Origin: an uncultured Verrucomicrobiae bacterium
Lineage (GTDB): Bacteria; Verrucomicrobiota; Verrucomicrobiia; Chthoniobacterales; JAFAMB01
Length of the DNA stretch: 64,000 nt
Reading direction: 5' to 3'
Assembly: GCA_963762565.1 (NCBI GenBank)
Contig: CAVXLD010000012.1
Span: 160,001 to 224,000 of the forward strand
Part shown: piece after piece, positions 27,782 through 56,966 of the stretch
Numbering within the stretch: position 1 is the first letter of the stretch
How the letters are laid out: the number at the start of each line of letters is the position of its first letter
Made by a program: the position numbers and the translations under genes
The notes under the pieces: generated by a model
The model's input: only the letters and a program-made list of their open reading frames with translations
Databases searched by the model: none
Told to the model about the DNA's origin: nothing

Positions 27782-27898
27782 GGAGGGATCGCGTCCTCGC
27801 GATCCGCGGTCGGAGCTGACCGCGTTGGTTAACCGGGAAACAATTGCGCCGATGGGTAATGGCACATCTTCGCGGCGCGCGAGGACGCGCGCCCTCCC
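27782..27898. repeat. REP/REPIN-like element family A, copy 4
   Basis: GGAGGGATCGCGTCCTCGCGATCCG ... CGCGGCGCGCGAGGACGCGCGCCCTCCC. Confidence 0.85.
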
Positions 27899-27909
27899 GG
27901 GTTTCCTCT

Positions 27910-35459: not shown

Positions 35460-35608
35460 GTCTTCGCTGCAAAATGGGCAGGTCCGCCGCGGACGGATGT
35501 CGTTCGCTGCTCAAACAAAAGCTTGATCTCCCAAGTGAGCAGAAGTCCTTTGCAAATTAGCAACTCGTTCTAAGAAATTGGATTGATCCCCTGTCCTCTA
35601 AAAACCCA

Positions 35609-36751
35609 ATGGCTTACCTTGAGATCACTCAGCTGGACAAACACTACGACCGGTTTCAGGCGTTAAAGCAAATCAACCTGTCCGTTCAGAAAGAAGAATT
35701 CATTGTTTTTGTCGGTCCGTCCGGATGTGGGAAAACGACGCTTCTGCGAACGATCTCCGGGCTGGAAACACCCACCGTCGGCCAGATCACTTTGGATGGG
35801 CGAGACATTACCTATGTTCATCCATCGAAAAGGAACGTGGCGATGGTCTTCCAGAACTACGCACTTTTTCCACACCTGAGCGTCTTTGAAAATATCGCGT
35901 TTGGTCTGCGCTTGCATGGACTGTCCCGGCAAGAGATCGACCAGCGAGTGCAACGGGCAGCTAAATTGCTGCATCTCGAACCTTTACTGACGCGAAAGCC
36001 GAAACAGCTCTCCGGCGGCCAACGCCAACGGGTCGCAATCGGAAGGGCGATTGTGAAGCAGCCCAAGCTATTCTTGTTCGATGAGCCGTTGTCGAACCTT
36101 GATGCCAAGTTGCGGGTGCGGATGCGAGTCGAGCTCTTGAATCTGCATTACGAGACTCGGAATACGGCGGTCTACGTGACTCATGACCAGGTTGAAGCAA
36201 TGACGATGGCGGATCGGATCGTGATTCTAAACGACGGTCGAGTCGAGCAGGTCGGAACGCCGGTGGATCTCTACGAGCGGCCCACTAATAAATTCGTGGC
36301 CGGCTTTATCGGCTCACCGCAAATGAATTTCCTGGAGTTGACGGTAGAGACGCAACGCGAGAATGGGCTGGCGTGCGTAGCAGAAGGCCTGGGCAAGCTT
36401 ATGCTACCAATCCGAGCCGAAGCAGCAATTGACCAGAAGAAGGTTACTCTAGGAATAAGGCCCGAACACGTTCGGGTGGCCGCAACCGAGTCCAGTGTCC
36501 GGCTGCCTGCAGTCGTAAACATCGTGGAGAACCTCGGAAGCGAGAACCTTCTCCACGCCGAATTCGCCGATAACCAATTGTTGGTGGCAAAGATTGCCGG
36601 CGGCGTTGCTCCCGAGAGGAATCATCGGTTAACCCTCTTTCTGCCGGCTGAACATTTATATCTGTTCGATGAGCAGGAGAATGTGATTCCGGTTAGCCCT
36701 CTGGTCACGCCCGGAACCCCGCGTCCGCGGGAAAAGGCGAAAACCCCTTAA
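35609..36751 (+). CDS. Sugar/polyol ABC transporter ATP-binding protein
   Basis: [38 protein letters not shown]. Confidence 0.93.
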   Translation: MAYLEITQLDKHYDRFQALKQINLSVQKEEFIVFVGPSGCGKTTLLRTISGLETPTVGQITLDGRDITYVHPSKRNVAMVFQNYALFPHLSVFENIAFGLRLHGLSRQEIDQRVQRAAKLLHLEPLLTRKPKQLSGGQRQRVAIGRAIVKQPKLFLFDEPLSNLDAKLRVRMRVELLNLHYETRNTAVYVTHDQVEAMTMADRIVILNDGRVEQVGTPVDLYERPTNKFVAGFIGSPQMNFLELTVETQRENGLACVAEGLGKLMLPIRAEAAIDQKKVTLGIRPEHVRVAATESSVRLPAVVNIVENLGSENLLHAEFADNQLLVAKIAGGVAPERNHRLTLFLPAEHLYLFDEQENVIPVSPLVTPGTPRPREKAKTP

Positions 36752-36785
36752 ACCAACTTAACCCAATCTAAGCGAGGAAATTGTT

Positions 36786-37880
36786 ATGAGTGCTGTTGCC
36801 GACAAGCTGCCAAAAACGATGGCGGTGATCATGTGTCACGGGCCCAAGGATTATCGACTTGAAGAACGGGCCGTACCCAAACCCGGTCCGGGCGAGGTGG
36901 TGATTCGAGTTAAAAGTACTGGGATCTGTGCCAGTGATATCAAGTGCTACACTGGCGCGGCTCTCTTTTGGGGCGATGAACATCGAAAAGGCTATTGTCA
37001 GGCGCCAGTTACACCCGGACATGAGTTTGTCGGTGAGGTCGTGGCGTTGGGTGAGGGCGCTGCGGAAAAGTACAAACTGAAAATCGGCGACCGGGCTATC
37101 AGCGAACAGATCGTACCGTGCTGGGAATGCGAGTACTGCCGAATGGGCGCGTATTGGATGTGCGCCGTTCACGATATTTACGGTTTCCGCCAACGTACGT
37201 TTGGGTCATGGGCGGAGTACATGTTGTTCCCGGCGGGGTCGCTGAATTACAAGGTGCCGGAAACGATTCCTTGGCATCACGCGGTTTTCATTGAGCCGCT
37301 TGCTTGTTCCATTCATGCGGTCGAGCGCGGTGATATCAAATATCAGGATACGGTGGTTATCGCCGGTTGTGGACCGTTGGGTCTGGGAATGGTTGCGGCG
37401 GCCAAAATGAAAGGGCCGGAGCGAATCATTGCTTTGGATCTGAGCGATGAACGGTTGGAAGTCGCTAAGGGCTGCGGAGCGGATATCGGGATCAATCCGA
37501 AAAAGGGAGATGCCATCGAACAAGTGCGCGCACTGACCGGCGGGTACGGGTGCGATGTTTATATCGAGGCGACAGGGCATCCGAGTGCGGTTGAGCAAGG
37601 CCTGCACATGATTCGTAAACTAGGCACCTTTGTTGAATTTAGTGTGATGCGGGAAAAGGTGACGGTTGACTGGACGATCATCGGCGACACGAAAGAGCTC
37701 AACGTCCACGGGTCTCATCTAGGTCCTCATTGCTATCCGGTCGCGATCCGAATGATCGAACAAGGCCTGCTGCCGATGGATCAAATCGTAACTCATCGGC
37801 TGGGCATGGGCGATTACCAGAAGGGTATCGATATGGTTATTTCAGGGCTGACCTCAGTGAAAGTCACGCTAGAACCTTAA
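36786..37880 (+). CDS. eltD: Zn-dependent polyol dehydrogenase, erythritol/L-threitol dehydrogenase-like
   Basis: CHGP.DYRLEE, GICASD.KCY.GA..FWGDE, PGHEFVG, SEQIVPCWEC..C, GCGPLG, VDWTIIGD.KEL, HLGP all match my recollection of EltD-type MDR enzymes. Substrate not certain. Confidence 0.75.
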   Translation: MSAVADKLPKTMAVIMCHGPKDYRLEERAVPKPGPGEVVIRVKSTGICASDIKCYTGAALFWGDEHRKGYCQAPVTPGHEFVGEVVALGEGAAEKYKLKIGDRAISEQIVPCWECEYCRMGAYWMCAVHDIYGFRQRTFGSWAEYMLFPAGSLNYKVPETIPWHHAVFIEPLACSIHAVERGDIKYQDTVVIAGCGPLGLGMVAAAKMKGPERIIALDLSDERLEVAKGCGADIGINPKKGDAIEQVRALTGGYGCDVYIEATGHPSAVEQGLHMIRKLGTFVEFSVMREKVTVDWTIIGDTKELNVHGSHLGPHCYPVAIRMIEQGLLPMDQIVTHRLGMGDYQKGIDMVISGLTSVKVTLEP

Positions 37881-37921
37881 CAAACAACATCTGATCACGA
37901 TGTAAACTAAGGACAAAACAA

Positions 37922-38344
37922 ATGCCATCCCCGGACTTGCGTCAGCAACTAGACCTAGTTCGCTCTATTCAGCCGGCGCTCCATGTTACCCAAAACTGGA
38001 ACTACGAGAATCCAGAGCCTCTGTACAAGGCCTATATGCACCCGCCTCACGATGTGGGCGGTCAGTACGATGTCCCAGTGAATCACGAGGAAAAGGAAGA
38101 AGAGGAATGGGAACTGAATACTTACGTTACGTGCGAAGTCTTGGGCTGGAGAGGTGTATGGACCGCTGAGGAGCGAAGGCGCCGGGCGGATAACGATTTG
38201 GGTTATACGCTTTACCTGGGTATGCCGTATTACGCACGGTGGATTTGGGCGGCAGCCAAGATGCTGGTCGACAAAAAGCATATTTCGCTGGCCGAACTGC
38301 AGGAAAAAATTGCGGAGGTTAAGGCTCGTCATGAAAAAAAGTAA
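37922..38344 (+). CDS. scnB: Thiocyanate hydrolase beta subunit
   Basis: QPALH, PHDVGG, EKEEEEWELNT..TCE.L.WRGVWTAEERRR, YLGMPYY.RW...A..LVDK; homologous to the N-terminal half of nitrile hydratase beta. Confidence 0.88.
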   Translation: MPSPDLRQQLDLVRSIQPALHVTQNWNYENPEPLYKAYMHPPHDVGGQYDVPVNHEEKEEEEWELNTYVTCEVLGWRGVWTAEERRRRADNDLGYTLYLGMPYYARWIWAAAKMLVDKKHISLAELQEKIAEVKARHEKK

Positions 38345-38660
38345 GACTACGGACGGGCCCGGGAAAGCGCCTGGGACGCGGAGCCTTTATAAAGTCGGCG
38401 ATCAAGTCCGGGTGCGGGATATGCCGTACATGTTCTACACTCGTTCGCAACTGTATACGCGCGGTGTTTTGGGGACCATCGCCGCTCTCACCTACAAGGA
38501 CCTCATCCCCGAGGAGGAAGCCTTCAACTGGGATGGGCAGGTCGAACAGTATTATATTGTGCGATTTCGCCAGAAGGATCTTTGGCCGGAGTATCCTTTC
38601 GACAACGATACCTTACAGACGGAGTGCCCTCACCGTTGGCTCGAACCTGCAACCCGCTGA
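38331..38660 (+). CDS. scnA: Thiocyanate hydrolase alpha subunit
   Basis: VGDQVRVRD.P..FYTR...YTRG..GTI, EEEAF, F.QKDLWPEY, NDTLQTE; SH3-like C-terminal half of NHase beta. ATG 38331 overlaps the scnB stop. Confidence 0.88.
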   Translation: MKKSKTTDGPGKAPGTRSLYKVGDQVRVRDMPYMFYTRSQLYTRGVLGTIAALTYKDLIPEEEAFNWDGQVEQYYIVRFRQKDLWPEYPFDNDTLQTECPHRWLEPATR

Positions 38661-39415
38661 TGAGCCATAAAGAAAAGAATATGAGCCATACACATACTCA
38701 CGGAAATTCTGGTCATACCCCTCACAAAGCGGCTCCGATGGTGGAAGAAATAACCGACTACGAGGTTTTAGAAATTGCCGTACGGGAGCTTGCGATTGAG
38801 CACGGTCTCTTCACCGCAGAGGATCATCGCAGATTCACGGAGTGGGCAGAATCGATTGGACCAGCGGCGGGTTCTCGATTGGTGGCGAAAGCGTGGACCG
38901 ATCCCGCTTTCAAGGCCCGTGCCCTGAAAGACGGCGTCAAAGCTTGCAAGGAAGTCGGCGTCGATTGGGCGGAGCCGACGGGATTCGGCACTCCGAGCGA
39001 TTACATGGAATTTCATCTGCTTGAAGATACGCCAACCCTGCATCATGTGATTGTGTGTACGCTCTGCTCGTGTTATCCGCGCCCCTTGCTGGGAATGTCG
39101 CCGGAATGGTACCGCACCACTAATTACCGCCGCAGGTTAGTCCGCTGGCCCCGTCAAGTCCTGGCAGAGTTTGGGTTAATCCTTCCGCCCGAGGTGGAGG
39201 TACGCGTAGAGGACTCGAACCAGAAGTGCCGCTTTATGGTTCTTCCGATGCGACCCAAAGGGACCGAGAAATGGACCGAGAAGCAACTGGAGGCGATTGT
39301 CACACGTGATTGCATGATTGGAGTCGCGCTGCCAAAACCGGGACGAACAGCAGACGTTCACCCAATCCAAAAGGCTCGACGGCCTGTGAAGAGCTCGCAT
39401 CAGGAGGGCGCCTGA
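38660..39415 (+). CDS. scnC: Thiocyanate hydrolase gamma (cobalt-binding) subunit
   Basis: His-rich N-terminus, APMVEE.TD.E.LE.AVRELAIE, FGTPSDY, Co-type VCTLCSCYPRP, NYRRRLVRWPRQVLAEFG, VTRDC. TGATG coupling; alternative ATG at 38681. Confidence 0.92.
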   Translation: MSHKEKNMSHTHTHGNSGHTPHKAAPMVEEITDYEVLEIAVRELAIEHGLFTAEDHRRFTEWAESIGPAAGSRLVAKAWTDPAFKARALKDGVKACKEVGVDWAEPTGFGTPSDYMEFHLLEDTPTLHHVIVCTLCSCYPRPLLGMSPEWYRTTNYRRRLVRWPRQVLAEFGLILPPEVEVRVEDSNQKCRFMVLPMRPKGTEKWTEKQLEAIVTRDCMIGVALPKPGRTADVHPIQKARRPVKSSHQEGA

Positions 39416-39750
39416 TGAATGCCGATCGGATTGCGCTCTTGGAGGCTACTCGCAATCAAGACAAGGCATGGGAGGTGCTGGCCCCGCGGTATGGGGTGAC
39501 TAACCTAAATCCACCTTGGAAAACGAGTCTTACCGCAATGTGTGACTGCCTTGCGGTCAGCGGAGCACTTCCGGCGCTGGACCGGCGGAAAGCTGAGGAT
39601 GCGCTGGCAGAGACCGTATATATGGACGTACCTTCGCCCGAACGTCAGTTGCTCGCACTTGTCCATACCATGGTCAGCCGCGGTCTGGTGACCGAGGCGG
39701 ATCTGGCGAGCCGAATGCGTACTATTCGAGCGCGGCTGGAAGCGGTTTAG
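39415..39750 (+). CDS. Thiocyanate hydrolase activator/metallochaperone (P15K-like)
   Basis: YGVTN.NPPWK..L..MCD, RR.AED, PER.LLAL.H....RG...E..L..RM..IRARLE; TGATG coupling directly after scnC. Confidence 0.75.
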   Translation: MNADRIALLEATRNQDKAWEVLAPRYGVTNLNPPWKTSLTAMCDCLAVSGALPALDRRKAEDALAETVYMDVPSPERQLLALVHTMVSRGLVTEADLASRMRTIRARLEAV

Positions 39751-39814
39751 GGCAGCAATATCGCACTGGTCTGCAACCAAACCGCAATTTTGCGCGCACC
39801 GAGGCTGATATAGG

Positions 39815-40873
39815 ATGATTTGGAGGCAGTTTAGACGGGTTTTCAAGGACCGGGCAGCTGATCTCCGCGTTTCGATCATCGGTATCTATCTCATTCTTTT
39901 CGCGATGAATCTTGCCGCGTGGGCCTGGGCGTTTGCGGCTTTTTATTCGCATCCGGTGCTGTTAGGAACTTCGTTATTAGCCTACAGCTTTGGTCTTCGG
40001 CATGCCGTGGATGCGGACCACATCGCGGCGATCGACAACGTTACCAGGAAATTGATGAACGACGGAAAACGCCCGGTTTCCGTTGGCTTCTTTTTCTCGC
40101 TTGGTCATTCAACCGTGGTTTTACTCGCTTGCTTTGCCGTGGCTCTGACCACGAGCGCGTTGCAAAATCGTTTTGGCCCTCTTCAGCGGGTCGGTGGAAT
40201 AATTGGTACTTCTGTATCTGCGGGTGTCTTGTTCGCGTTAGCGTTCATGAACATCCTGATCATGACCAGGATTTGGCAGACGTTCCAGCGGGTACGGCAT
40301 GGAGGACGTTATGTCGACGAGGACATGGATATTATTCTGGCGCGAGGAGGTTTACTGGCCCGGATTTTCCGACCGCTCTTCAGGTTGATCACGAAAAGCC
40401 GGCACATGTATCCATTGGGTTTTTTGTTTGGGCTAGGATTTGAGACCGCCACAGAAGTGGCCCTTGTAGGTCTATCCGCCTCGGAAACCGCCAAAAACTT
40501 GCCGATTTGGTCAGTTCTCGTTTTTCCGGCTTTATTTACGGCCGGCATGTCGATGGTGGATACAACGGACGGGATTCTGATGCTGGGCGCTTACGGCTGG
40601 GCATTCTTAAACCCGTTGCGAAAGCTTTTTTACAATCTCACGGTCACAGCCGTCTCCGTGTTGGTGGCGGTACTGATCGGGGGAGTGGAGACCTTGGGCC
40701 TTATCGGTGATCAGCTCTCTTTTACCGGCTGGTTTTGGGATATTGTCCGCTCGGCCAACGACAATTTTGGCCTGATCGGTTACCTTATCATTGGGTTGTT
40801 CGTAGCGAGTTGGTTCCTGTCGCTGATTATCTATCGAATCAAGGGGTACGATAAGGTGGTGGTGTCAAATTAA
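39815..40873 (+). CDS. NiCoT (HoxN/HupN/NixA/NhlF) nickel/cobalt permease
   Basis: Signature GLRHAVDADHIAAIDN, FSLGHSTVV, GFLFGLGFETATE; about 8 TM segments. Confidence 0.93.
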   Translation: MIWRQFRRVFKDRAADLRVSIIGIYLILFAMNLAAWAWAFAAFYSHPVLLGTSLLAYSFGLRHAVDADHIAAIDNVTRKLMNDGKRPVSVGFFFSLGHSTVVLLACFAVALTTSALQNRFGPLQRVGGIIGTSVSAGVLFALAFMNILIMTRIWQTFQRVRHGGRYVDEDMDIILARGGLLARIFRPLFRLITKSRHMYPLGFLFGLGFETATEVALVGLSASETAKNLPIWSVLVFPALFTAGMSMVDTTDGILMLGAYGWAFLNPLRKLFYNLTVTAVSVLVAVLIGGVETLGLIGDQLSFTGWFWDIVRSANDNFGLIGYLIIGLFVASWFLSLIIYRIKGYDKVVVSN

Positions 40874-40940
40874 ACGTAGTTGGCACCACTCGACCAAAGA
40901 CCGCCATTCTTGACCCGTGCCGGCACACTCACAAGGCACT

Positions 40941-41110
40941 TCGTTCTCGTCCTCGTCGTCGTCCTTCCGACTTCGCCAACGCCTGGTTGTGGAGCGCGCC
41001 TCGCTTGCGAGGCCGAGTTCGAGCGGTTGGCAACATAGAGCATAGGCTTCGTCGGACAGGCTGTCCTCGAATCCGGCCACGCGGAGTGATGTAGTGTTGG
41101 AGTACTGCGC
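40941..41110. repeat. Composite of nested intergenic repeats
   Basis: Host CTCGTCCTCG..GTCCTCGAA..GGAGTGATG element (uninterrupted relative at 56281-56344), split by family B (40966-41061), which contains CCTCGCTTGCGAGGCCG (also at ~53318). Confidence 0.7.
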
Positions 41111-41177
41111 CAAGTCCGAAAAGCATCCGCCTTGGCGGATTGGAGATGCTGAATGGTTCTCAGTTTTTTTTGTGCGT

Positions 41178-41204
41178 TGTCGAATTGAAGCGCGACCGTT
41201 CGAC
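41178..41204 (+). promoter_or_regulatory. Putative ECF42-type promoter
   Basis: TGTCGA-N17-CGAC, 60 bp upstream of the DGPF gene; matches the known ECF42 consensus TGTCGA / CG(A/T)C. Confidence 0.65.
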
Positions 41205-41263
41205 TAGATTACTGAAAACTGGTTAGAATCAAATCAACCCAACTACCTAGGAGAAAATCTATT

Positions 41264-41602
41264 ATGCAATACTTGCTATTGATCTATGAGAACGAAAAAC
41301 GTTTCGCTACCGGTTACGACCCGGCAGAAATGAAAGAGTATATGGCCTTCGGCGAGACGTACGGGAAAGCTATTAAAGGTGGGAACGCGCTTCGAGCGAC
41401 AACCACAGCCACCACCGTCCGAGTCCGTGACGGCAAGCGTCTGACCACGGACGGGCCGTTTGCGGAGACCAAAGAACAGTTAGGTGGGTTTTATTTAGTC
41501 GAGGCGGACGACCTTGACCATGCCATCGAGATGGCCGGGAAAATCCCGGGCGCCCGCCACGGCTCTGTCGAAGTCCGGCCGATCGAGACATTCGGGCAGT
41601 GA
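41264..41602 (+). CDS. YciI/DGPF domain protein
   Basis: MQYLLLIY, TDGPFAETKEQLGGFY, GSVEVRP; AGGAG RBS. Confidence 0.9.
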   Translation: MQYLLLIYENEKRFATGYDPAEMKEYMAFGETYGKAIKGGNALRATTTATTVRVRDGKRLTTDGPFAETKEQLGGFYLVEADDLDHAIEMAGKIPGARHGSVEVRPIETFGQ

Positions 41603-42828
41603 GAGAACTAGAGGACGTCTTCCGTAATGAATGGGGGCGGATATTGTCCGCCCTCATTTCTGCGCTGGGTGACTTCGATCTTGCAGAAGAGGTGCTGCAG
41701 GAGGCTTTCTCTTCCGCCGTTGTCCAATGGTCTACGGGTGCACCCCAAAATCCGCGGGCCTGGCTCTACGCAACGGCCAAACATAAAGCGATCGATATCA
41801 TCCGGCGCCGGACTAACTTTGCCGAAAAGCAGGCAGAGTTGGTGATACGGGAAGAATGCGGCCGCACCGACGCTATTGATGGCGAAGAGGACTCTGTTGT
41901 GCCTGACGAACGATTACGATTGATTTTTACTTGTTGCCATCCCGCGTTGCCACCAGAAGCGCAAGCTGCCTTAACCCTGCGTACGCTATGCGGGCTGACA
42001 ACGGAAGAGATCGCCCACGCTTTTTTGTTGCCGACCGCTACCATTGCCCAACGGTTGGTGCGCGCGAAAACCAAGATTCGAAACGCAGGCATCCCTTATC
42101 GGGTTCCCTCTGCCCCGGACGTATCCGCTCGGCTATCCGTAGTGATGGCGGTGATTTACCTCGTATTTAACGAAGGGTACTCAGCGGCACTCGGCGATAC
42201 CCTGGTGCGTCACGAGCTTTGCGCTGAGGCTATTCGGCTGGCGCGATTGTTGCGACTGCTCTTACCAGAGCCGGAACCAGAATTAGACGCGTTGTTGGCT
42301 TTGATGCTGTTGCATGACTCTCGCCGAGGCGCTCGCGAAGATGCTAATGGCGATCTGGTTCTTCTGGCCGACCAGGATCGTACCCGTTGGAACCGCTCAC
42401 AAATCGACGAAGGGTGTGCCTTGGTGCAATCGGTGTTTCAGCAGGGTCCAATCGGACCCTATGCCATCGAGGCGGCCATCGCAGCTTTGCATGCAAGTGC
42501 CCCCTGCGCTGAGGAGACTGATTGGAAACAGATCAGTGCGCTCTATGGGCGGCTGTTTGCGCTACACCATTCGCCGGTAGTTGCCCTCAACCGCGCGGCA
42601 GCGATGTCGATGGCAGAAGGGCCAGAAGCGGCATTACCGCTGGTTAATGCTCTAGAGTCGTCGCTTGAAGATTACCATTTGTGGCACGCTACACGTGCCG
42701 ATTTGCTGCGACGACTCGGGCGTAAAGCAGAGGCCGCCGTTGCTTATCGGCGTGCTCTGGAACTGACGGAGAATGCGGTAGAGCGACGCTTTCTCACGCG
42801 CCGCCTGGAGGCACTTTCAGACAATTGA
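41599..42828 (+). CDS. ECF42-type sigma factor with long TPR-like C-terminal extension
   Basis: DLAEE.LQEAF, RLRLIFTCCHPAL, AQRLVRAK, YLVFNEGY, QDRTRW, SPVVALNRA; coupled to the DGPF gene. Confidence 0.9.
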   Translation: MRELEDVFRNEWGRILSALISALGDFDLAEEVLQEAFSSAVVQWSTGAPQNPRAWLYATAKHKAIDIIRRRTNFAEKQAELVIREECGRTDAIDGEEDSVVPDERLRLIFTCCHPALPPEAQAALTLRTLCGLTTEEIAHAFLLPTATIAQRLVRAKTKIRNAGIPYRVPSAPDVSARLSVVMAVIYLVFNEGYSAALGDTLVRHELCAEAIRLARLLRLLLPEPEPELDALLALMLLHDSRRGAREDANGDLVLLADQDRTRWNRSQIDEGCALVQSVFQQGPIGPYAIEAAIAALHASAPCAEETDWKQISALYGRLFALHHSPVVALNRAAAMSMAEGPEAALPLVNALESSLEDYHLWHATRADLLRRLGRKAEAAVAYRRALELTENAVERRFLTRRLEALSDN

Positions 42829-42882
42829 TTTAAGCGATTCTACAATCGTCACCGGTCTTTCTCGAAACGCCTCCCCAGATTT

Positions 42883-43290
42883 TCACCACGACGTGACGAC
42901 TTTCGGATTTTGGCCGCCTTTTTTCTTGCAGTCTCTGATGGCTGCCTGCTCCTGGTCATGTTTTGGGTCGCCCACATTCACAATGTGATGACCGGGCAGC
43001 GAAAAGCTAAAACCGACAATCGTTCCAGCGCCGTTGTCTGAGACCGCGACTGCTCCGTTGGCCGCCTTAATAAAGGTTCCGGCTATTTTAGCGTCTGCTC
43101 CGCCGCGGGCCTTGCATTTCTGGATCGCTTGCGCGCAAACCGCTGTCGTATCTGTAAGACTACTATCGTGCGCAATCGCCCACTTGCCGTTACTCGCGAC
43201 GGCGATCGCGAGAGCAGCAGTGAGGCTTTGCGTAGGGAAGAAACTCGATCCGAATAGGATCGACATAATCGTCAGCTGTCGTTTTATCAT
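42883..43290 (-). CDS. Small exported protein, DUF4189-like with internal repeat
   Basis: Two related halves: AIAVASNG...AIQKCKARGG and AVAVSDNG...AIRDCKKKGG. Confidence 0.55.
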   Translation of the reverse strand: MIKRQLTIMSILFGSSFFPTQSLTAALAIAVASNGKWAIAHDSSLTDTTAVCAQAIQKCKARGGADAKIAGTFIKAANGAVAVSDNGAGTIVGFSFSLPGHHIVNVGDPKHDQEQAAIRDCKKKGGQNPKVVTSW

Positions 43291-43509
43291 TTTGGGTCTG
43301 TCTTGATAACCCGTCCCTGGAATAGGTTGCTAGCTCGCCAATCAATATTCATGCCTCTGCACGTTTCGGTCTGAGCATAGCGAGTCATGCCTTAGGCAGT
43401 AAAACGGAAGAAAACGGCAACTGTTTCAGGAAAAGGAAACTGCGCCGATGAGACAATATGCTTCCCATCAAACAAATAGTGCCGGTTTCGAGAGATCCTC
43501 GATTGAGAG

Positions 43510-44748
43510 TCAGCGTTCCGGTCGACGCGAACCATTGGCAGAAAGTCCGCTCTGCCAAATCGCGTCGGGCATAAGCCAAGCACCGCAAAAGCCGAGAAAG
43601 ATCACCGCAGCGACTGGCTGGATAGTCAGAATCCAAAGAGCCTTTTGGCTGGGCAAAAAGCTGGTGCGAGCCACGGCGAAGACCATCAGGAGATAAACCA
43701 GTAGCATCCCCATACGCAACCAACTGGGCCGGGAACTCAGGAACACGTCGACGAACGTTAATACCATAGCGGGAGCGAGCAGCACGTAAGTCTGAAGTTC
43801 TGTGGCGGGACCGCAAAGTGTCATCCAGATGCAAGCGAACGCCAGTATCCCTGCTAACAGCCGATCCTTTGGCCAATCTTTCCAAACGCCAAACAAACAG
43901 AAAACGGCGATTAGACCCCCGCTCAGGATCTGAAAGGCGGTGTAAACGAAGCCGGGAATCGGGAGATGGCCGAAACGCACCAGGAGAAACCAAAGGTCCA
44001 ATGGCACATCCTTTATCGGGTAAAGGCGGCGGTCATCGGCTGAACGAGTTGAGATCCAGTCGTGATATTGCTGTGATACGTAAGCCCAGTGCTGAAAAAG
44101 AAAGGGCAGGATTCCAAGGAGGAGTAATGCCAGTAGCAGTCGCCAGCCCAGTCTCCGAGGCGCTATCAGCAAGAGAACGAGGCCGACCGCGAAGGGATAA
44201 ATCTTAATATAAGTCGCCGCGGCAATGCAAAGAGCTGCCACAGCCCAACGTTCAGCTGGCGCCGCTGCCACCGCGAGAAGTACGAGGCCGATCACGGTAG
44301 GATTAGCCTGGCCCGTATCCAGATTGCCGAGTACCAACGGCACTAGCAAAAGGTAGACGATACCGTGATATCCCGGCTTTATCCCTGAATAGGTGCCGCT
44401 ACCCAAGAGAGCCCAGACGCCGGCAAGAAATATCCCGGCGTTGAACCAGGTCCAGCAGAGATTGCCCAAACCGGGCGGAAGCAATGCAAACGGGGTAAAA
44501 AAGACGGCTGCTAACGGGCTGTAGACAAATCCTCTCCAGTCTCCATACAGATGTTGGGCACTTAGCCAATGTGACCCGGCAAGACGATAGACGGTGAACG
44601 CGGTGGCGCGATGGGGATTGCCAAGTGTGCGCACCGCCAACCCCAAGAAAACGATAGCCCATACCGCCAACGCACCGATGTTCCACCCGCCGAAGGTCTT
44701 AACCCAACCCTGCAGCCCGGCGGAACGACCCTCCGAGACCGTGCTCAT
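43510..44748 (-). CDS. GT87/DUF2029 family membrane glycosyltransferase
   Basis: VYRLAG.HW, FVYSPL.AVFF.PFA.LP, GQAN, IKIYP; many TM segments. Confidence 0.8.
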   Translation of the reverse strand: MSTVSEGRSAGLQGWVKTFGGWNIGALAVWAIVFLGLAVRTLGNPHRATAFTVYRLAGSHWLSAQHLYGDWRGFVYSPLAAVFFTPFALLPPGLGNLCWTWFNAGIFLAGVWALLGSGTYSGIKPGYHGIVYLLLVPLVLGNLDTGQANPTVIGLVLLAVAAAPAERWAVAALCIAAATYIKIYPFAVGLVLLLIAPRRLGWRLLLALLLLGILPFLFQHWAYVSQQYHDWISTRSADDRRLYPIKDVPLDLWFLLVRFGHLPIPGFVYTAFQILSGGLIAVFCLFGVWKDWPKDRLLAGILAFACIWMTLCGPATELQTYVLLAPAMVLTFVDVFLSSRPSWLRMGMLLVYLLMVFAVARTSFLPSQKALWILTIQPVAAVIFLGFCGAWLMPDAIWQSGLSANGSRRPER

Positions 44749-44934
44749 GGGAGACAAATCGCTGCCTGAATTCTATCTGCCGGGCTGACAGACGGCAAAA
44801 CGCATGCTATTTCCGGGACACGATACGAGTGACTGGTCGATAAGGCGTGCGAACTAAGAAAAGCGTGAAACATTTTATCTTCGGGAAGCCGATACCGTGG
44901 GCGGGAGCTGGTATCGGAAGAAAGCCCTGCATAA

Positions 44935-46209
44935 ATGGCTCTTAAACTCGATACTGGCAAGCTCCAGATTATTGACCGAATTGTTGGTGTTCCGCTCTGC
45001 GCCGTTTTTACCCTGCTGCGGCGACTGAAGGGCGACCGGTTTGTGCCGGAGAGAGTCGAGCTTCCGCGCAACGTGCTCTTCGTCAAATTGGCGGAGCAAG
45101 GTTCGACGGTTCTGGCCTATCCTGCCATCTCGCGGGCTCTGCAGCTCGTTGGCCGCGAAAACGTGTTCTTCCTAGTTTTTGAGGAGAACCGATTCATCCT
45201 CGATGCGATGGGTCTTATCCCGGCCGAAAATGTAATCACGATTCGTCATAAAAATCCGTTCGAGCTCGCCTGGCAGGCTCTCCAGGCCGTGATGCGTATC
45301 CGCCGACAACGTCTGGATGCTGCGGTGGATCTGGAATTTTTCTCTCGCGGATCCGCGCTGCTTACGTTCCTATCCGGCGCGCGGCAACGCGTAGGGTTTC
45401 ACACCTTTTTTGGAGATGGACCCTATCGGGGCGACCTGATGACGCACCGGCTATCGTACAATCCGTATCTACACACGAGTCAAACGTTCTTGCTCATGGT
45501 GGTGGCTCTGGAACAACCGGTGCCTCGCTCAGGTAAATTATCAGTCCAGGTACCCCAAATTGAGAAATGGGTACCGGATTTTGAGCCTCTAGCGAGTGAA
45601 CAGGATGAAATACGCACTCTGCTTCAACGGGAGACCCGTAGTGAGACCGATCCCCCCATTGTATTGCTGAATCCGAATGCAAGCGACCTATTGCCGCTGC
45701 GTAAATGGCCGGAGGATCGGTACGTCTCACTTGCGCGACGTCTGCTGGATGCGTTTCCCGAGATCTATATAGGACTGACCGGTGCCCCCGACGAGGCGGG
45801 ACCGATCGAAGCCATGGTTCAGGAAATCGGATCGCCTCGCTGTTTTTCGCTCGCGGGAAAAACGACGTTGCGCCAGCTCCTGGTGCTTTACACGCTCTCG
45901 GAGCTTTTGATTACCAACGACAGCGGGCCTGCGCATTTTGCAGCAATGACTCAGATCCACACGTTGACGTTGTTTGGCCCGGAAACGCCCGCTCTTTTTG
46001 GCGCACGGACTCCTCGAGCCGTCACGATTTGGCAGGGGCTGGCCTGTAGCCCCTGCGTTAATGCTTATAATAATCGTCAAAGCTCCTGCACGAACAACGT
46101 GTGTATGCAGAAAATCATAGTCGACCGTGTCTTCGACGAAGCCAGCAAAGTGTATCTTGCGCGGGCAAGGAAGCAGGAGATCTCTGCAATTGGGCATGTG
46201 CCCGGTTAG
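44935..46209 (+). CDS. Glycosyltransferase family 9 (heptosyltransferase-like)
   Basis: LNPNAS...RKWP, LAGKTTL, ITNDSGPAH, LFGPETP, CSPC..C....CM. Confidence 0.85.
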   Translation: MALKLDTGKLQIIDRIVGVPLCAVFTLLRRLKGDRFVPERVELPRNVLFVKLAEQGSTVLAYPAISRALQLVGRENVFFLVFEENRFILDAMGLIPAENVITIRHKNPFELAWQALQAVMRIRRQRLDAAVDLEFFSRGSALLTFLSGARQRVGFHTFFGDGPYRGDLMTHRLSYNPYLHTSQTFLLMVVALEQPVPRSGKLSVQVPQIEKWVPDFEPLASEQDEIRTLLQRETRSETDPPIVLLNPNASDLLPLRKWPEDRYVSLARRLLDAFPEIYIGLTGAPDEAGPIEAMVQEIGSPRCFSLAGKTTLRQLLVLYTLSELLITNDSGPAHFAAMTQIHTLTLFGPETPALFGARTPRAVTIWQGLACSPCVNAYNNRQSSCTNNVCMQKIIVDRVFDEASKVYLARARKQEISAIGHVPG

Positions 46210-46253
46210 ACGCTACTTGATCCCAGCCGCCCTCATTATTATCGGGCCGTACG

Positions 46254-46799
46254 TCAATGCGTGCGAAAGTCCTGCCCTTTGACTGCCCCTTCGCTAAAGC
46301 CGCCGCGACTGACCTGACTAGGAGCGCCAGTGAAGGTTAAGATGTAATCGAACCCGACGTGTTGTTGACTCGAAAAAGTTAACTCGCCAGTGACCGCAAG
46401 GCGCTTGTTATCTAACCAGTTCCCAAGAGTTCGTAAATCCTTCACTACCCGGCCTGATGACCCCGCTTGTCTCGCTAAATCATCGTATAGAGACGGAGGA
46501 TCTACTTCCAGAGTCCTCTGCCACTTTCCGTCTTGCAAATAGGCAGCATAAACGTAAGTGCCCCTCACGAAGTCGGTGGCCACGACCACCCGAGATGAGT
46601 CGGGTGACCATTTGACATCCAAGCGCTTCACTCCTTGCATGTCTTCGACCACTGTAAATATCGCGGTACCGTGCTCTACAATCTTTGCGGTGGTGCCGCC
46701 CATCAATACATACTGACCATTCGGCGACGCCACATCTTGGGCGATGCCACTACCGACCGACAACAATAACATGGCTAACTGAAGGCTCTGGATTTTCAT
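46254..46799 (-). CDS. Exported hypothetical protein
   Basis: Signal peptide, SPNG and WSPDS turns; starts 2 bp after the upstream stop. Confidence 0.6.
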   Translation of the reverse strand: MKIQSLQLAMLLLSVGSGIAQDVASPNGQYVLMGGTTAKIVEHGTAIFTVVEDMQGVKRLDVKWSPDSSRVVVATDFVRGTYVYAAYLQDGKWQRTLEVDPPSLYDDLARQAGSSGRVVKDLRTLGNWLDNKRLAVTGELTFSSQQHVGFDYILTFTGAPSQVSRGGFSEGAVKGQDFRTH

Positions 46800-46801
46800 A
46801 A

Positions 46802-47422
46802 TTAGTTTCCAGGAATTGAACCGCTATGCGCGTACGCTTGAACGGTGACCATCGGATTTCCGATAGTATTGGAGTTTTGTTGGAATTGGATACCGACCGC
46901 AGTGGCGGCGGCCTCCGAAATTTCGCCTGCAGGCGCGTCTGCCGGGCCGTTATCCTCGACTCTCGCCCAAACTTGTTGGCCGGTGTCCACATTGGTAACT
47001 AACGCCCAGTCACCAATCTGGACGCCGGCCGCGGCCATGGCCGCATCCCGAACCACGTATGCGTATTGCGATGAATCAACCGGTTGCCCGTTTATCGTTC
47101 CCGATGTCTCCGGGTTGTAATCAGGGTCGTAGGCCGTGCTCTCGTTCGGGTCACCATCGGTGTCAATACGAGCTACTTGAGTACTGGACGAAAAGGAAGG
47201 ATCACCCAATTCGTCCTGCGGTGTGCCAAACCCGGTACCCTCTGCATTGGTAACGGACTGGGTCCCAGAGACTGCGTTCCCTATTTGCTGACCTTGCGAT
47301 AAATCGTTTTGCGTTGGAGTACCGGACGCCCCGCCGCTCGGCTGACTGATGCTATCATCGCATCCGGAGAGACCCGCGATGAGTAGCATAACGAAGCTCC
47401 AGCGAGGGATAGTTCGCGCCAT
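46802..47422 (-). CDS. Lipoprotein with GH75/DPBB-like domain
   Basis: Lipobox LSGC, low-complexity linker, IDTDGDP, GVQIGDWALV, ARVEDNGP, GEISEAAA. Confidence 0.6.
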   Translation of the reverse strand: MARTIPRWSFVMLLIAGLSGCDDSISQPSGGASGTPTQNDLSQGQQIGNAVSGTQSVTNAEGTGFGTPQDELGDPSFSSSTQVARIDTDGDPNESTAYDPDYNPETSGTINGQPVDSSQYAYVVRDAAMAAAGVQIGDWALVTNVDTGQQVWARVEDNGPADAPAGEISEAAATAVGIQFQQNSNTIGNPMVTVQAYAHSGSIPGN

Positions 47423-47436
47423 ATGGCTTCCAGCGC

Positions 47437-48183
47437 CTACGTCGAGGTCCGTTCAGGGCGCGCTCGCAGGAGGAATCCGAATACCTGATTGGTCGCGCCA
47501 TACTTCTCGATCCACGTCTCCACTTTCCCAAAACAATTCCAGTTTTTGCCCTTTCCAATATCGAGGCCGTACACCTGGCGATCCGACCCAAGGATAACGA
47601 CTGCCCCTAACGATACGGGACCGGTCGCAGAGTAGACACTTGGCCACACCAAAATCGACCCGGCGGGCGCCGCGCTAGGATCAACCGGGATCGCGTCAGA
47701 CTGTTGGAGCTCTCGGAGAATTCCTAAGGTGCTATTAGATCTGAATGTGAACCCGGTAATCGGGCCTAACACTGTGTTAAGCGCGGCCCCTATAGGACAA
47801 ATATCTTCACCGGGTGCGATGGTTCTCTGCTGGCTTGACGGCGATCCGGTCACTCCCAGCAGAACGCAGAACCGGGAAAGTACTTCTGATGGGATCAGAC
47901 TCTGATCGCGAGCAAAGTCGAGAGAGGTATCGGCAAAGAGGACCTGGTAAGATTTAACGGACGGATCGGTAGACCCGTTGGCTATCACCAAGGCGCCACG
48001 GCTTGTTTCCTGTTGCAGAACAAACAAATCGTATCTGGTTGCGCTGGTCTGTACTTCTCCGTAAAAGACGATCCGACCCTGGGGAACCGCATTCTGAACG
48101 AAGTTAGGCAATTGTTGGTCGAGACCGTCGGCCATTGCTGTTGAGGCAGTGAGCAAGAACAGGAATGGGAGATATAATAACAT
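47437..48183 (-). CDS. Exported hypothetical protein, possible degenerate NlpC/P60-like C-terminal domain
   Basis: Signal peptide; C...PAGSILV....LGAVVI resembles C...PGDII...GHVGI but lacks the His. Confidence 0.5.
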   Translation of the reverse strand: MLLYLPFLFLLTASTAMADGLDQQLPNFVQNAVPQGRIVFYGEVQTSATRYDLFVLQQETSRGALVIANGSTDPSVKSYQVLFADTSLDFARDQSLIPSEVLSRFCVLLGVTGSPSSQQRTIAPGEDICPIGAALNTVLGPITGFTFRSNSTLGILRELQQSDAIPVDPSAAPAGSILVWPSVYSATGPVSLGAVVILGSDRQVYGLDIGKGKNWNCFGKVETWIEKYGATNQVFGFLLRARPERTST

Positions 48184-48270
48184 TATTACAGAGTGTATGC
48201 CACGTCTAAACCATAGTCAATAACAGCTATATTAGATGTTATTATGCAGGACGCTACGAGTACCCAGAAC

Positions 48271-48430
48271 CTGGAGGGGGGCCGCTTTGTAGGCTAGCAG
48301 CTCTGTAAGTTGGCGGCTCCCGGGCACGGTCCAGCGCTAGCCAGTTCTGTAGGCGGCTTCCAAATCGGCGGGTTCTGCCACCCCGTCCTTCTTGAATGGC
48401 TGACGCTGGGTAATTCCCGGGAGCCGCCTG
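48271..48430. repeat. Family C element, partial second copy
   Basis: CTGGAGGGGGGCCGCTTT, GGCGGCTCCCGGGCAC and TTCCCGGGAGCCGCCTG in the same order as 23004-23195. Confidence 0.7.
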
Positions 48431-48479
48431 TCTAACCCCGAAGGCTTTCGGTGGCTGCCGCCCAGAGAGCGCGGCGATC

Positions 48480-49343
48480 CTACTTGATCGCGCCCATGGT
48501 CAACCCACGGACCAATTGCCGCGAAACGATGATACTGAAAATGATAACCGGAAGGGCAATCATGGTTCCGGTCGCCATGATCTGTCCCCAGGGCAGGTCA
48601 TAGCCGCTCATGAAGCTGGTTGCTACGACCGGAGCAGTTTGAGCGTATTTTCGAGTGAGAACCAACGCGTAGAGCAGCTCGTTCCAGGAGAAGATAAAGC
48701 TGAAGATCGCGGAGACCGCAATACCGGGCGCAGCCAGCGGCAGACCGATCTTCCAAAAGATGGCAAACGAATTGTATCCCTCCAAAGTCGCAGCTTCATC
48801 GAGCTCCTTCGGAATATTGCGGAACTGATCGGCGCAGATCCAAATCACGATGGGAACATTAAAAGTGAGATAGATCAGGATCAGGACGAGTTGCGTATCC
48901 AAAAGCTTTAGATTGCGAGCTAGAATGAAGAAGGGTAACGCTAGCACGATTGGGCTTAGCATCCGGTTCGTAATAAACCAGAACCAGAGGTCTTTTTTGC
49001 CTTTAAACTCGAATCTAGCGATGGCATAGGCAGCCGGAGTGCCCAGCAGCAAAGAAAGCGCCGTTGTACTAAGGGCTACGATCAAGGAGTTTTCCAGGCT
49101 CAGAGCGACGTCGAATTTCCTTACTGCCCGCTGATAGTTTTCCAACGTTGGCGAGAACAGAAATTTCGGGACGGGCGACAGAATATCCTGCTGATTTTTA
49201 AAGGAGGTCACCACCATCCAGTAAAAAGGAAAAACGCAGAACACGATGATCGCCAGCAAAACGACGAAGTGCCAGATCTGCAGCTTCGGTCGATACCGAA
49301 GTACGCCATTCTTCGCGGTAGAAATAGAGCTCTCAGACTTCAC
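48480..49343 (-). CDS. Carbohydrate ABC transporter permease (MalG type)
   Basis: PFYWMVVTSFK, EAA loop ELDEAATLEG, WNE, LVRGLTMGAIK; GTG 49343 overlaps the upstream stop. Confidence 0.9.
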   Translation of the reverse strand: MKSESSISTAKNGVLRYRPKLQIWHFVVLLAIIVFCVFPFYWMVVTSFKNQQDILSPVPKFLFSPTLENYQRAVRKFDVALSLENSLIVALSTTALSLLLGTPAAYAIARFEFKGKKDLWFWFITNRMLSPIVLALPFFILARNLKLLDTQLVLILIYLTFNVPIVIWICADQFRNIPKELDEAATLEGYNSFAIFWKIGLPLAAPGIAVSAIFSFIFSWNELLYALVLTRKYAQTAPVVATSFMSGYDLPWGQIMATGTMIALPVIIFSIIVSRQLVRGLTMGAIK

Positions 49344-50250
49344 GATAAATAAACCGAATATAAATTCGGGATAGTATGATGGTGATAACCAGGAGAATAA
49401 TCGCTTCAGCGGAAGCCATACCTTGTTCAAACGACCGGAAACCGATCCGCTGGATGTAAATGCTGATCAACTCGGTGGCAGCCCCAGGTCCCCCGCGAGT
49501 CATAATAAAGACCACGTCGAACATCTTGAGGATATCGGCGGTTCTAAGGATCAAAATTGCGGTAAGTCCAGGCAGCAGAAAAGGCAACTGAACCTTACGC
49601 AATACGTGCCACCATTTATCGGTTTCCAGCTTAGCTGCCTCCTCGATTTCGACCGGGACCATGGTGAGGCTCGAATATAAAACCAGGGCGCAGAATGGGG
49701 TCCATTGCCAGCAATCCATGATCGAAATGCTGAGAAATGCCAGATTCGGATCGGCCAACCATTCCATCTTGTGGCCGAACACCAGGTTCCAAAAGAAATT
49801 GTTGATCCCAAAATCGCCGTTGAAAACCAGGCGTCCGATCAGCCCGACCACGGCAAATGTCGTTGCCATGGGGATGACCAGGGCGATCCGGGTGACATTC
49901 TTCAGCCATTCGTTACCTGGCCTGTGTAGAAGCAGGGCGATGGTCAGGCCGAGGACCACCTGAATCGGTAAGTTTACAATCAGGAACAGGAACGAGCGGC
50001 CGAGTGCGTTACGAAAAGATTCATCGAAGAGCAGGTCGCGGTAGTTCGAAAACCAAACAAAAGGGGCATCGAAAATCGGCCAGATACCAAGAAAAGCGCC
50101 CTTAAAATGGACCTTCGTTAAAATGAACTGCTGAAGCGATGTCCAAAGGGCGAAGAGCAAAGGGATAATGCCCACCAACAGGAGGACAATCATCGCGGGG
50201 GCTACGAACCAGAACACTCCCGTTGAATAGCTTTTCTTAGCAGTGGCCAT
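49333..50250 (-). CDS. Carbohydrate ABC transporter permease (MalF type)
   Basis: WQWTPF, EIEEAAKLE, MTRGGPG.AT. Confidence 0.9.
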   Translation of the reverse strand: MATAKKSYSTGVFWFVAPAMIVLLLVGIIPLLFALWTSLQQFILTKVHFKGAFLGIWPIFDAPFVWFSNYRDLLFDESFRNALGRSFLFLIVNLPIQVVLGLTIALLLHRPGNEWLKNVTRIALVIPMATTFAVVGLIGRLVFNGDFGINNFFWNLVFGHKMEWLADPNLAFLSISIMDCWQWTPFCALVLYSSLTMVPVEIEEAAKLETDKWWHVLRKVQLPFLLPGLTAILILRTADILKMFDVVFIMTRGGPGAATELISIYIQRIGFRSFEQGMASAEAIILLVITIILSRIYIRFIYREV

Positions 50251-50418
50251 CGTTGGTTTTCATGGTTGATGCAATTTCATGGGCAACACGAGCCATTGGT
50301 ACACGCGCATTACCGGGCATGACAAATGACAGGTGAAAAATGACAAATCACCTGCAGTCGGGCCACCCTACGGGAAGTCTCTGATCTGTCATCTGTCATT
50401 TGTAATTTGTCATTTTGG

Positions 50419-50445
50419 GCTGGCCCCGGTGGGGCCGGGGCCAGC
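50419..50445. other. Strong hairpin just downstream of the solute-binding protein gene
   Basis: GCTGGCCCCGG-TGGGG-CCGGGGCCAGC, with inverted TGTCATT/AATGACA heptamer runs at 50319-50413. Confidence 0.55.
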
Positions 50446-50454
50446 AGTGAGCTC

Positions 50455-51789: not shown

Positions 51790-51977
51790 ATGGGTGGGAG
51801 AAGGGATTTAAGATGAACGTTTCCGGGAGTCCGTTTTTCAAAAAAACGGAAAGTCCGAAATGGGATTTCAAGACTTCAAGGGACGATGGTCCGCTGCCGC
51901 CTTCCGCCTTGGCTAAAGCTATGGCGGACAAATCGTCCCTCGTTCCCGAACGGTGGCGGACAAGATGCCGCGCTGGG

Positions 51978-53072: not shown

Positions 53073-53105
53073 ACTGGGGGGAAGGAGGGTGACGACCTAA
53101 GAGTG

Positions 53106-53119
53106 TTGAATCGATTCAA
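53106..53119. promoter_or_regulatory. Perfect LacI-type operator palindrome
   Basis: TTGAATCGATTCAA with central CG, 34 bp upstream of the lacI-like start. Confidence 0.65.
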
Positions 53120-53156
53120 TCAGACTCGACAGAAGTGGGCCGGGTGAAACGAATTT

Positions 53157-53281
53157 TCATGTCCGAGGGGGGGTTGGAGTGAACGAGGCCACTGCACAAT
53201 TATGCAGGAGTTGATACGTATGCATAGTGGTAAAAAGGTCAAATGCAAGCCTTTTTGAAACGATTTCATGGAACGCTCTAG
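53157..53281 (-). promoter_or_regulatory. Promoter/operator block, copy 2
   Basis: Reverse complement aligns with 35334-35459. Confidence 0.7.
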
Positions 53282-53354
53282 TTCCAGTTGTTTTATGGGC
53301 GAAGCCGTGGAGCGCCACCTCGCTTGCGAGGCCGTCGCGAACAGGGCGATATCA

Positions 53355-55289: not shown

Positions 55290-55450
55290 GGGGAAACTCT
55301 AATCTGGACCCGGGTGTTAACGGCGGCAACGGCGATAGGTTCAGCTTAGCTGTTCACCTTGCGAAAATTCTGCGACCAAACCGGAGCCCGCCTCCGCCAA
55401 GCCTACGGCGCGGCAGGCCCTCACCCCACCAAGTTTGCGCTCGCGCTTGT

Positions 55451-56263: not shown

Positions 56264-56472
56264 GCTCAGTGCGCTTGGTTCTCGTCCTCGTCCTCGAACC
56301 CGGCGCGTGGAGTGATGGAGTACTGGAGTATTGGAGCACTGCGCTCTGGCGGTATTGCATCTGCCTTGGCAGATTTGGAAACCGTCAGGGCAACGGGCGG
56401 GAGCAAGCGAGAGTTACCGGGGGGGCTTTTTTCCCGCTCGTTGTGAGCGTTGTCCGATGCTCGTTACACCGT

Positions 56473-56853: not shown

Positions 56854-56966
56854 AGATTTTCCGAAGCCTGCCACAGACCGGGCGTTTCAGCTACAAAACG
56901 GTGATAATTTCACGCGAGCTGAGAGTGTACGATTAGGGCTATCTGTGGCAGGCTTCGGAAATCTCT

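Follow-up and report, generated by a model that had tools for sequence, protein, structure and literature searches.

The window analysed here, a stretch of 64,000 nucleotides from an uncultured Verrucomicrobiae bacterium (positions 160,001 to 224,000 of contig CAVXLD010000012.1), harbours five tightly packed genes on its forward strand (window 37922-40873). They code for the three subunits of a predicted cobalt-dependent thiocyanate hydrolase (SCNase), ScnB, ScnA and ScnC, for a P15K-type activator and for a NiCoT permease. The source genome, 93.7% complete, comprises 6.1 Mb in 15 contigs, of which C12 contains the window. A first reading of this DNA (hereafter, the original prediction) had placed these genes in this order at the same positions, with coupled translation and a beta-type subunit split in two; this layout was borne out, as all five genes lie on the + strand at these coordinates and the first four overlap.

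The first gene, scnB (37922-38344, +), codes for a beta subunit of 140 aa homologous to the N-terminal half of the nitrile hydratase beta subunit (Pfam NHase_beta_N, 72.7 bits). Its start is preceded by the ribosome-binding site AAGGA, and its product carries the EERRRR pocket arginines within the sequence WTAEERRRR. The complementary C-terminal half (Pfam NHase_beta_C, 57.2 bits) is provided by the alpha subunit of 109 aa encoded by scnA (38331-38660, +), whose ATG at 38331 lies inside the 3' end of scnB, the overlap being 14 nt. The split of the beta-type subunit is thus apparent from the Pfam assignments. The catalytic gamma subunit of 251 aa (Pfam NHase_alpha) is encoded by scnC (38660-39415, +), whose ATG overlaps the stop codon of scnA by one base (TGATG); a further in-frame ATG is found at 38681. 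The activator gene (39415-39750, +; 111 aa) overlaps the scnC stop in the same manner (TGATG), with an AGGAGG sequence immediately 5', such that translation of the first four genes is coupled through overlapping stop and start codons. The activator, a putative cobalt insertion or maturation helper of the P15K type, matches Pfam NHase_beta_N weakly (22.2 bits for a cut-off of 21.5). After a gap of 64 nt follows the gene of a permease of the NiCoT (HoxN/NixA) family (39815-40873, +; 352 aa), with 400.9 bits for TIGR00802 (cut-off 333.05) and 328.7 bits for Pfam NicO. It falls below the cut-off of the NicT nickel equivalog (358.4 vs 450 bits) and is presumed to import cobalt for the enzyme, a preference deduced only from the linkage of such genes to those of cobalt enzymes.

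Profile models identified the enzyme as an SCNase. ScnC scored 380.4 bits with the thiocyanate hydrolase gamma equivalog TIGR03887 (NCBIfam), above the cut-off of 291.45, but only 211.8 bits with the nitrile hydratase alpha equivalog TIGR01323, below that of 249.85. Similarly, ScnB (41.7 bits) and ScnA (42.7 bits) failed the nitrile hydratase beta equivalog TIGR03888 (cut-off 152.2). Comparisons with all solved structures gave the same picture. The best match of the gamma subunit is 2dd4_C (348.6 bits; best nitrile hydratase 214.7 bits), the sole PDB match of the beta subunit is 2dd4_B (E 5.9e-45), and the alpha subunit matches 2dd4_A with E 6.6e-27, as opposed to E 6.6e-7 for the best nitrile hydratase beta subunit. 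Thus, each of the three subunits has its best PDB match in the corresponding subunit of the Thiobacillus thioparus THI115 SCNase (EC 3.5.5.8; PDB 2DD4, 2DD5, 2DXB, 2DXC, 2ZZD). Identities counted by hand from the alignments are 151/239, 71/131 and 49/93 residues for the gamma, beta and alpha subunits, respectively, i.e. only ~63, 54 and 53%.

The residues expected at the active site are also shared. The ScnC motif CTLCSCYPRP begins at residue 133 of 251. When residues are numbered as in the 2DD4 chains (our manual count on the alignments), gamma Cys128, Cys131, Ser132, Cys133 and Arg136 are identical to those of 2dd4_C, and Arg90, Arg91 and Arg92 of the beta subunit are conserved in ScnB. In the T. 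thioparus enzyme, the four gamma residues Cys128, Cys131, Ser132 and Cys133 are the cobalt ligands, and gamma Arg136 together with beta Arg90 and Arg91 are the pocket residues for substrate choice. The CTLCSC, CSCYPRP and EERRR motifs announced by the original prediction are therefore all present in the gamma subunit and ScnB. Another shared trait is the His-rich N-terminus of ScnC (window 38681-38730: HTHTHGNSGHTPH), where the T. thioparus protein has a DH repeat; it may represent a conserved metal-gathering tail.

Judging from these sequence features, we consider it highly probable that the five genes constitute a self-contained islet for a cobalt-dependent SCNase, most likely serving nitrogen and sulfur gain or detoxification. 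By analogy with T. thioparus, ScnB and ScnA, as the two halves of a nitrile-hydratase-type beta subunit, would assemble with ScnC to form the enzyme. The Cys-Thr-Leu-Cys-Ser-Cys motif of ScnC would bind a non-corrin Co(III), through ligands that in SCNases include Cys-sulfinic and Cys-sulfenic acids, and beta Arg90 and Arg91 with gamma Arg136 would line the pocket for the thiocyanate anion, which would be converted to carbonyl sulfide (COS) and ammonia (SCN- + 2 H2O -> COS + NH3). The NiCoT permease would import Co2+, and the P15K-type maturation factor would load cobalt into the gamma subunit. How such helpers act in SCNases, by self-subunit swapping or by direct cobalt delivery, has only been proposed, according to a review (PMC7193024). 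Finally, COS may be hydrolysed to sulfide by one of the three beta-carbonic anhydrases encoded in the genome. The thiocyanate might stem from glucosinolates or cyanide detoxification, as suggested by the original prediction, and COS might be released. We infer catalytic activity, cobalt use, helper mechanism and physiological role alike from homology and gene context.

To place the cassette among its relatives, we searched 5.8 billion proteins, which yielded thousands of gamma-subunit relatives. The best 120 are 70-93% identical to ScnC, and many of those carry the source label thiocyanate hydrolase gamma subunit. When one genome was scanned for each prokaryote species, we obtained 79 loci whose gamma subunits are 68-90% identical to that of the window. 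All 79 have scnC and scnA, and 78 have scnB, with partial or displaced genes in a few (L040, L049, L053, L068). An activator homologue is encoded directly 3' of scnC in 78 of the 79 loci, the remaining one ending 94 nt past scnC, and the B-A-C-activator order is preserved in nearly all of them. The EERRR motif is found in each of the 75 ScnB sequences counted (those with 120 residues or more; neither the window copy nor L003 is included). Full-length NiCoT homologues flank the scn genes in six of the 79 loci. Linkage of NiCoT to cobalt-enzyme genes is seen in the window and in L005, L013, L020, L024, L046 and L054; in L005, from a genome of the same family, the NiCoT homologue adjoins a nitrile hydratase.

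The T. thioparus sequence itself is not part of our trees, and a Thiobacillaceae locus (L088) served as its stand-in. The B-A-C-activator order is common to this locus and the window, in line with the scnBAC-P15K layout that the original prediction had ascribed to T. thioparus, and the activator homologue of the Thiobacillaceae locus shows 50% identity over 112 aa. The review cited above draws the T. thioparus gene order as alpha-beta-gamma (PMC7193024), whereas L088 has B-A-C. The loci differ beyond the activator gene: NiCoT comes next in the window, whereas the Thiobacillaceae and Thiogranum loci have a NitT/TauT-type ABC transporter at this place. Likewise, in T. thioparus DSM 505, an ABC transporter follows the activator and sulfur-handling genes lie beside scn (PMC5328954).

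These differences bear on the possibility that the enzyme feeds an energy metabolism in which the released sulfide is oxidized lithotrophically, as in T. thioparus. The characterized enzymes come from sulfur-oxidizing lithotrophs (PMC5328954), and a search of the 93.7%-complete genome that found neither SoxB nor the RuBisCO large subunit did not extend to sulfide:quinone reductase, flavocytochrome c or other sulfur-oxidation genes. Nevertheless, the islet has neither the ABC transporter of the lithotroph loci (present in L088 and L073) nor the sulfur-handling genes of T. thioparus, and SoxB and RuBisCO, which stand for the sulfur-oxidation and CO2-fixation genes expected in the host of a Thiobacillus-type lithotrophic island, were not found. 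In addition, the window is rich in genes for sugar transport and catabolism, alongside housekeeping genes such as those of enolase and MiaB. Unlike T. thioparus, the host thus appears to be a non-lithotrophic Verrucomicrobium, and the heterotrophy presumed by the original prediction agrees with the lack of SoxB and RuBisCO hits and with the sugar-utilization genes found throughout the window. With neither SoxB nor RuBisCO detected, a role in detoxification or in the acquisition of nitrogen and sulfur is likelier than lithotrophy. Given also the sugar neighbourhood and the different downstream genes, the islet most likely allows a heterotrophic soil Chthoniobacterales host to gain ammonia, and sulfide, from thiocyanate or to detoxify it, and a role as an energy source is unlikely.

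We also considered that the locus might code for a cobalt nitrile hydratase that consists of three subunits, has its beta subunit split in two, converts organic nitriles to amides and resembles SCNases in its layout only. The two enzyme types are homologous, and Pfam places all the subunits in NHase families. Cobalt nitrile hydratases, such as those of Pseudonocardia thermophila (1IRE) and Pseudomonas putida (3QXE), belong to the same fold family, have the CTLCSC motif, and share with the window locus a small beta-like activator and frequent NiCoT linkage. However, their beta subunit is the product of a single gene, a Trp follows their metal motif, their alpha subunit passes TIGR01323, and their substrates are organic nitriles. 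In contrast, the window enzyme has a split beta subunit, an Arg at that position and a gamma subunit that passes TIGR03887 but not TIGR01323, and its predicted substrate is thiocyanate. The genome itself offers an internal control, since it also encodes a canonical cobalt-type nitrile hydratase elsewhere (G000:C1:1147032-1150571; L002), with alpha subunit, unsplit beta subunit and accessory protein. These score as expected for nitrile hydratases (alpha, 311.3 bits with TIGR01323; beta, 239.2 bits with TIGR03888; accessory protein, TIGR03889), and the alpha subunit has the motif CSCYPWP.

The contrast between Arg and Trp, on which the original prediction had relied, holds throughout our data set. 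Both CTLCSC and CSCYPRP are present in all 80 SCNase-type gamma subunits (window and 79 loci), whereas the four nitrile hydratase alpha subunits from this genome and relatives all have CSCYPWP. The PDB chain 3vyg_C has a Trp instead of the wild-type gamma Arg136; this Arg, which controls substrate choice, has reportedly been mutated to study that choice, although our literature search found no paper on it. We then built a tree of gamma and alpha subunits comprising 84 sequences, namely those of the window, the 79 loci and the four nitrile hydratases. Not included were L001 (the window itself), L003 (identical in its figures to L010), L008 and L009, both partial, and L006, which fell short of the 150-residue filter. 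The 80 SCNase-type sequences are split from the four nitrile hydratases by a long branch with 100% support. Thus, the clustering with nitrile hydratases that the original prediction had named as fatal to its claim is not seen, and we regard a nitrile hydratase as very improbable.

Within the SCNase-type part of the tree, the window and its closest relative, L010, belong to a clade of 34 soil sequences (97% support), separate from that formed by Thiobacillaceae, Thiogranum and gammaproteobacterial genomes. The titles of its members indicate Pseudomonadota (20), Binatota (5), Verrucomicrobiota (4), Acidobacteriota (2) and Myxococcota (1), two being unlabelled (the window and L015). The window gamma subunit is 83-89% identical to those of loci titled Alphaproteobacteria, Binataceae and Acidobacteriaceae, and this high identity across phyla points to horizontal exchange. 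We also built a tree of concatenated ScnB, ScnA, ScnC and activator sequences from the window, the 33 other soil-clade loci and eight chosen outgroup loci (42 rows). In that tree, the window and L010 group together (100/100) beside, with weaker support (93/87), two Acidobacteriaceae and two further Verrucomicrobiota loci. Another Verrucomicrobiae-labelled locus, L017, nests among Binataceae; it is located on a 9.4-kb contig with a recombinase gene and may be mis-binned.

The soil cassettes (L010-L069; Alphaproteobacteria, Binataceae, Acidobacteriaceae, Myxococcota and Verrucomicrobiota titles) have gamma subunits 72-90% identical to that of the window and the same four-gene core, often with cobalt transporter genes (NiCoT or CbtB) next to it, and we found no substantive difference between them and the window. 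In nine of the 33 soil-clade loci, which we annotated, the activator gene is followed by NiCoT, a distant NicO-like gene, CbtB or nothing recognizable, and the flanks are otherwise unrelated. These observations point to a cassette exchanged among soil bacteria of several phyla. In L017, a serine recombinase gene (L017:19-1455) is located 1.7 kb 5' of the scn genes, and in L012, a gene for an IS110-family transposase (L012:7025-8110) is located 2 kb 3' of them; such neighbours hint at the way in which the cassette travels.

We compared the insertion site among related genomes. The islet can be delimited as an insertion/deletion unit of 3318 bases (37880-41197) that extends from the stop codon of the upstream dehydrogenase gene to the conserved region upstream of a YCII gene. 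The left flank, outside the cassette, is a gene of the Zn-dependent alcohol/threonine dehydrogenase family (36786-37880, +; Pfam ADH_N and ADH_zinc_N). The right flank, also outside it, consists of the YCII-domain gene and a gene for an ECF-type sigma factor with DUF6596 (41264-42828, +; Pfam YCII, Sigma70_r2/r4 and DUF6596). In a genome of the same genus (G002), a 134-kb contig (G002:C26, L092) is collinear with the window over 35509-37879 and then over 41198-60888, with 188 unrelated bases in place of the 3318 and both flanks 81-85% identical. At this empty site, the dehydrogenase gene adjoins the YCII gene. The cassette is also missing behind the dehydrogenase gene in a second genome (G001:C565, L093). 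Altogether, two of six same-genus genomes reach the family cut-off (G000, which is that of the window, and G005), and the site is empty in two (G001 and G002); the other two, which are 78 and 84% complete, have nothing above the cut-off, the site itself being unresolved in their assemblies. The cassette thus behaves as a single unit that was either acquired or lost at a place flanked by two conserved chromosomal genes. Its edges show only chance-level short matches to the 188-base spacer of the empty site, and no target-site duplication, terminal inverted repeat or mobility gene was seen there.

The closest relative, L010, has the same order of dehydrogenase, cassette, YCII and sigma-factor genes, collinear with the window over 6.9 kb, and it is the only one of the compared soil cassette loci to share this insertion site. 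The same-genus genome G005 (locus L003) gave the same figures as L010, and the two were counted once together. As L010 is titled Chthoniobacterales bacterium, it lends indirect support to the Verrucomicrobiota host of the original prediction. Between the window and L010, the dN/dS ratios of the cassette genes are 0.055-0.15, and their dS values of 0.6-1.4 resemble those of the flanking genes (0.8-1.2). These low ratios and flank-like dS values indicate that the cassette is older than the split from the L010 species and has been maintained by purifying selection.

The original prediction had also considered a chimeric contig, with a false junction between the scn genes and the ribosomal RNA operon. 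The collinearity with the single G002 contig covers the intervening stretch and ends just before the window 16S gene (61093), which shows that the window contig is not chimeric there. In megablast comparisons, the 16S gene gave the expected 78% identity with E. coli genomes. Soil metagenomes of other studies yielded contigs that match the cassette at 95-99% identity, and one soil-run contig joins the NiCoT end to the YCII upstream region, skipping a repeat-bearing stretch of 225 bases. An assembly or binning artefact joining foreign, e.g. alphaproteobacterial, DNA to a verrucomicrobial contig might be suspected from the identities across phyla and from the possibly mis-binned L017, but it is hardly credible in view of the separately deposited L010 with the cassette between the same two genes, the collinear G002 contig (window 35.5-60.9 kb except the cassette), the matching dS values, the even G+C content across the region and these independent soil contigs.

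The upstream edge of the islet differs between the window and its closest relative. The gap between the dehydrogenase gene and scnB is 41 nt in the window vs ~380 nt in L010, where scnB is preceded by ~316 extra bases (L010:1090-1405, compared with window 37881-37921) that match no part of the window. In two other soil runs, contigs stop matching the window exactly at 37879/37880, which fits the longer spacer of L010, and none of the soil-run contigs aligned to the window joins the dehydrogenase gene to scnB in the form seen here. The window strain thus seems to have lost the upstream region of the cassette, and the scn genes might consequently be read through from the dehydrogenase gene. Between 35100 and 41300, a scan detected a single promoter-like site, which precedes the YCII gene, and six sites resembling terminators; neither number exceeds the shuffled expectation.

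Several points weigh against a working SCNase islet of the kind proposed. The soil clade is distinct from the sulfur-oxidizer clade, the expected home of the T. thioparus enzyme as judged from its stand-in L088, and we found no characterized member of the soil clade, so a shifted substrate is possible. The functional assignment leans on ~63% identity of the gamma subunit to one characterized enzyme. No sigma-70-like promoter was found upstream of scnB in the scanned region, and given the gap of 41 nt vs ~380 nt, expression is only predicted. The islet itself includes neither a thiocyanate transporter nor a regulator among its genes. The absence of SoxB and RuBisCO from a 93.7%-complete assembly is not proof of absence. 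Lastly, among PDB hits (E <= 1e-10), the three beta-carbonic anhydrases match only ordinary carbonic anhydrases and no carbonyl sulfide hydrolase.

On its 3' side, the NiCoT gene is followed by a spacer (40874-41263) that contains a dispersed short repeat element and a GTCGAA..TTCGAC inverted repeat. In unrelated soil runs, the portion 40964-41247 has a depth of 200-350, and several contigs pass over 100-225 bases of it; window 41000-41112 matches many contigs of same-genus genomes. The inverted repeat (GTCGAA-N13/14-TTCGAC; window 41160-41200), located just 5' of the YCII/ECF sigma pair, is kept in the window, in L010 (4540-4570) and at the empty site of L092, and may be an operator of the YCII/ECF sigma operon. 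Elsewhere in the window, short intergenic stretches of ~45-120 bases (48414-48459, 53298-53346, 55383-55435, 56282-56344 and 27782-27900) match dozens of different same-genus contigs at 73-100% identity and probably belong to REP-like repeat families. Two adjacent short ORFs at 24168-25006 match separate segments (positions 37-116 and 143-263 of 353) of a model for a group II intron reverse transcriptase/maturase and look like a broken or frameshifted intron ORF.

We determined how widespread the enzyme is in the phylum by sampling 461 genomes of Verrucomicrobiota and relatives, many of them incomplete. Of 401 genomes drawn evenly from the phylum, only that of the window is above the family cut-off (none of the 400 others), and among the 60 nearest relatives, only G005 is. 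SCNase cassettes are therefore rare in Verrucomicrobiota. Their novelty, as implied by the original prediction, is nevertheless weakened by the automatic annotation of such genes in soil metagenomes, by the Verrucomicrobiota-level titles of four of the 79 related loci, and by a published SCNase tree that extends beyond sulfur oxidizers (PMC10098168). According to that study, the tree consists mostly of Proteobacteria, especially Alphaproteobacteria, and Actinobacteria, with extensive transfer, and homologues also occur in Cyanobacteria, Bacilli and haloarchaea (PMC10098168). Its main and supplementary texts, which perhaps do not reflect the tree files, contain no mention of Verrucomicrobia, and the supplementary text none of Chthoniobacter or Acidobacteri (PMC10098168). 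In the literature that we searched, no paper assigns a thiocyanate hydrolase to Verrucomicrobiota. The enzyme kind is already known, structurally solved and widely auto-annotated, and the window copy is one more member of it; the points of wider interest are the empty-site evidence and the multi-phylum soil clade only.

Taken by itself, the locus contributes modestly, with a clear example of gain or loss that includes an empty site within the genus, and with a candidate enzyme for thiocyanate in a host background that is new. As a broader and tentative proposal, which we hold to be possible rather than probable, the 3.3-kb unit of scnBAC, activator and cobalt importer might represent a minimal, horizontally exchanged islet for the conversion of thiocyanate to ammonia that has spread among soil bacteria which are not lithotrophs and belong to five phyla or more. 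Previous work on thiocyanate hydrolase concerned its role as entry enzyme in the sulfur-oxidizing lithotrophs used to clean mine and coke-oven water. Its occurrence in sugar-consuming bacteria, here and in many close relatives from soil metagenomes, with no more than a helper protein and a cobalt importer beside it, would make thiocyanate a nitrogen and sulfur source in ordinary soils. It would also suggest that the carbonyl sulfide of soils, a gas that serves to constrain estimates of photosynthesis, may be of microbial origin. A study of soil COS lists thiocyanate hydrolase as an enzyme yet to be assessed (PMC6330096). If the proposal is true, bacteria carrying the islet could be a biological source of the COS emitted by soils, as no dedicated COS hydrolase was found in the host among the PDB hits of its carbonic anhydrases, and ordinary soil heterotrophs, not sulfur oxidizers, could account for most of the biological removal of thiocyanate that derives from plants and cyanide.

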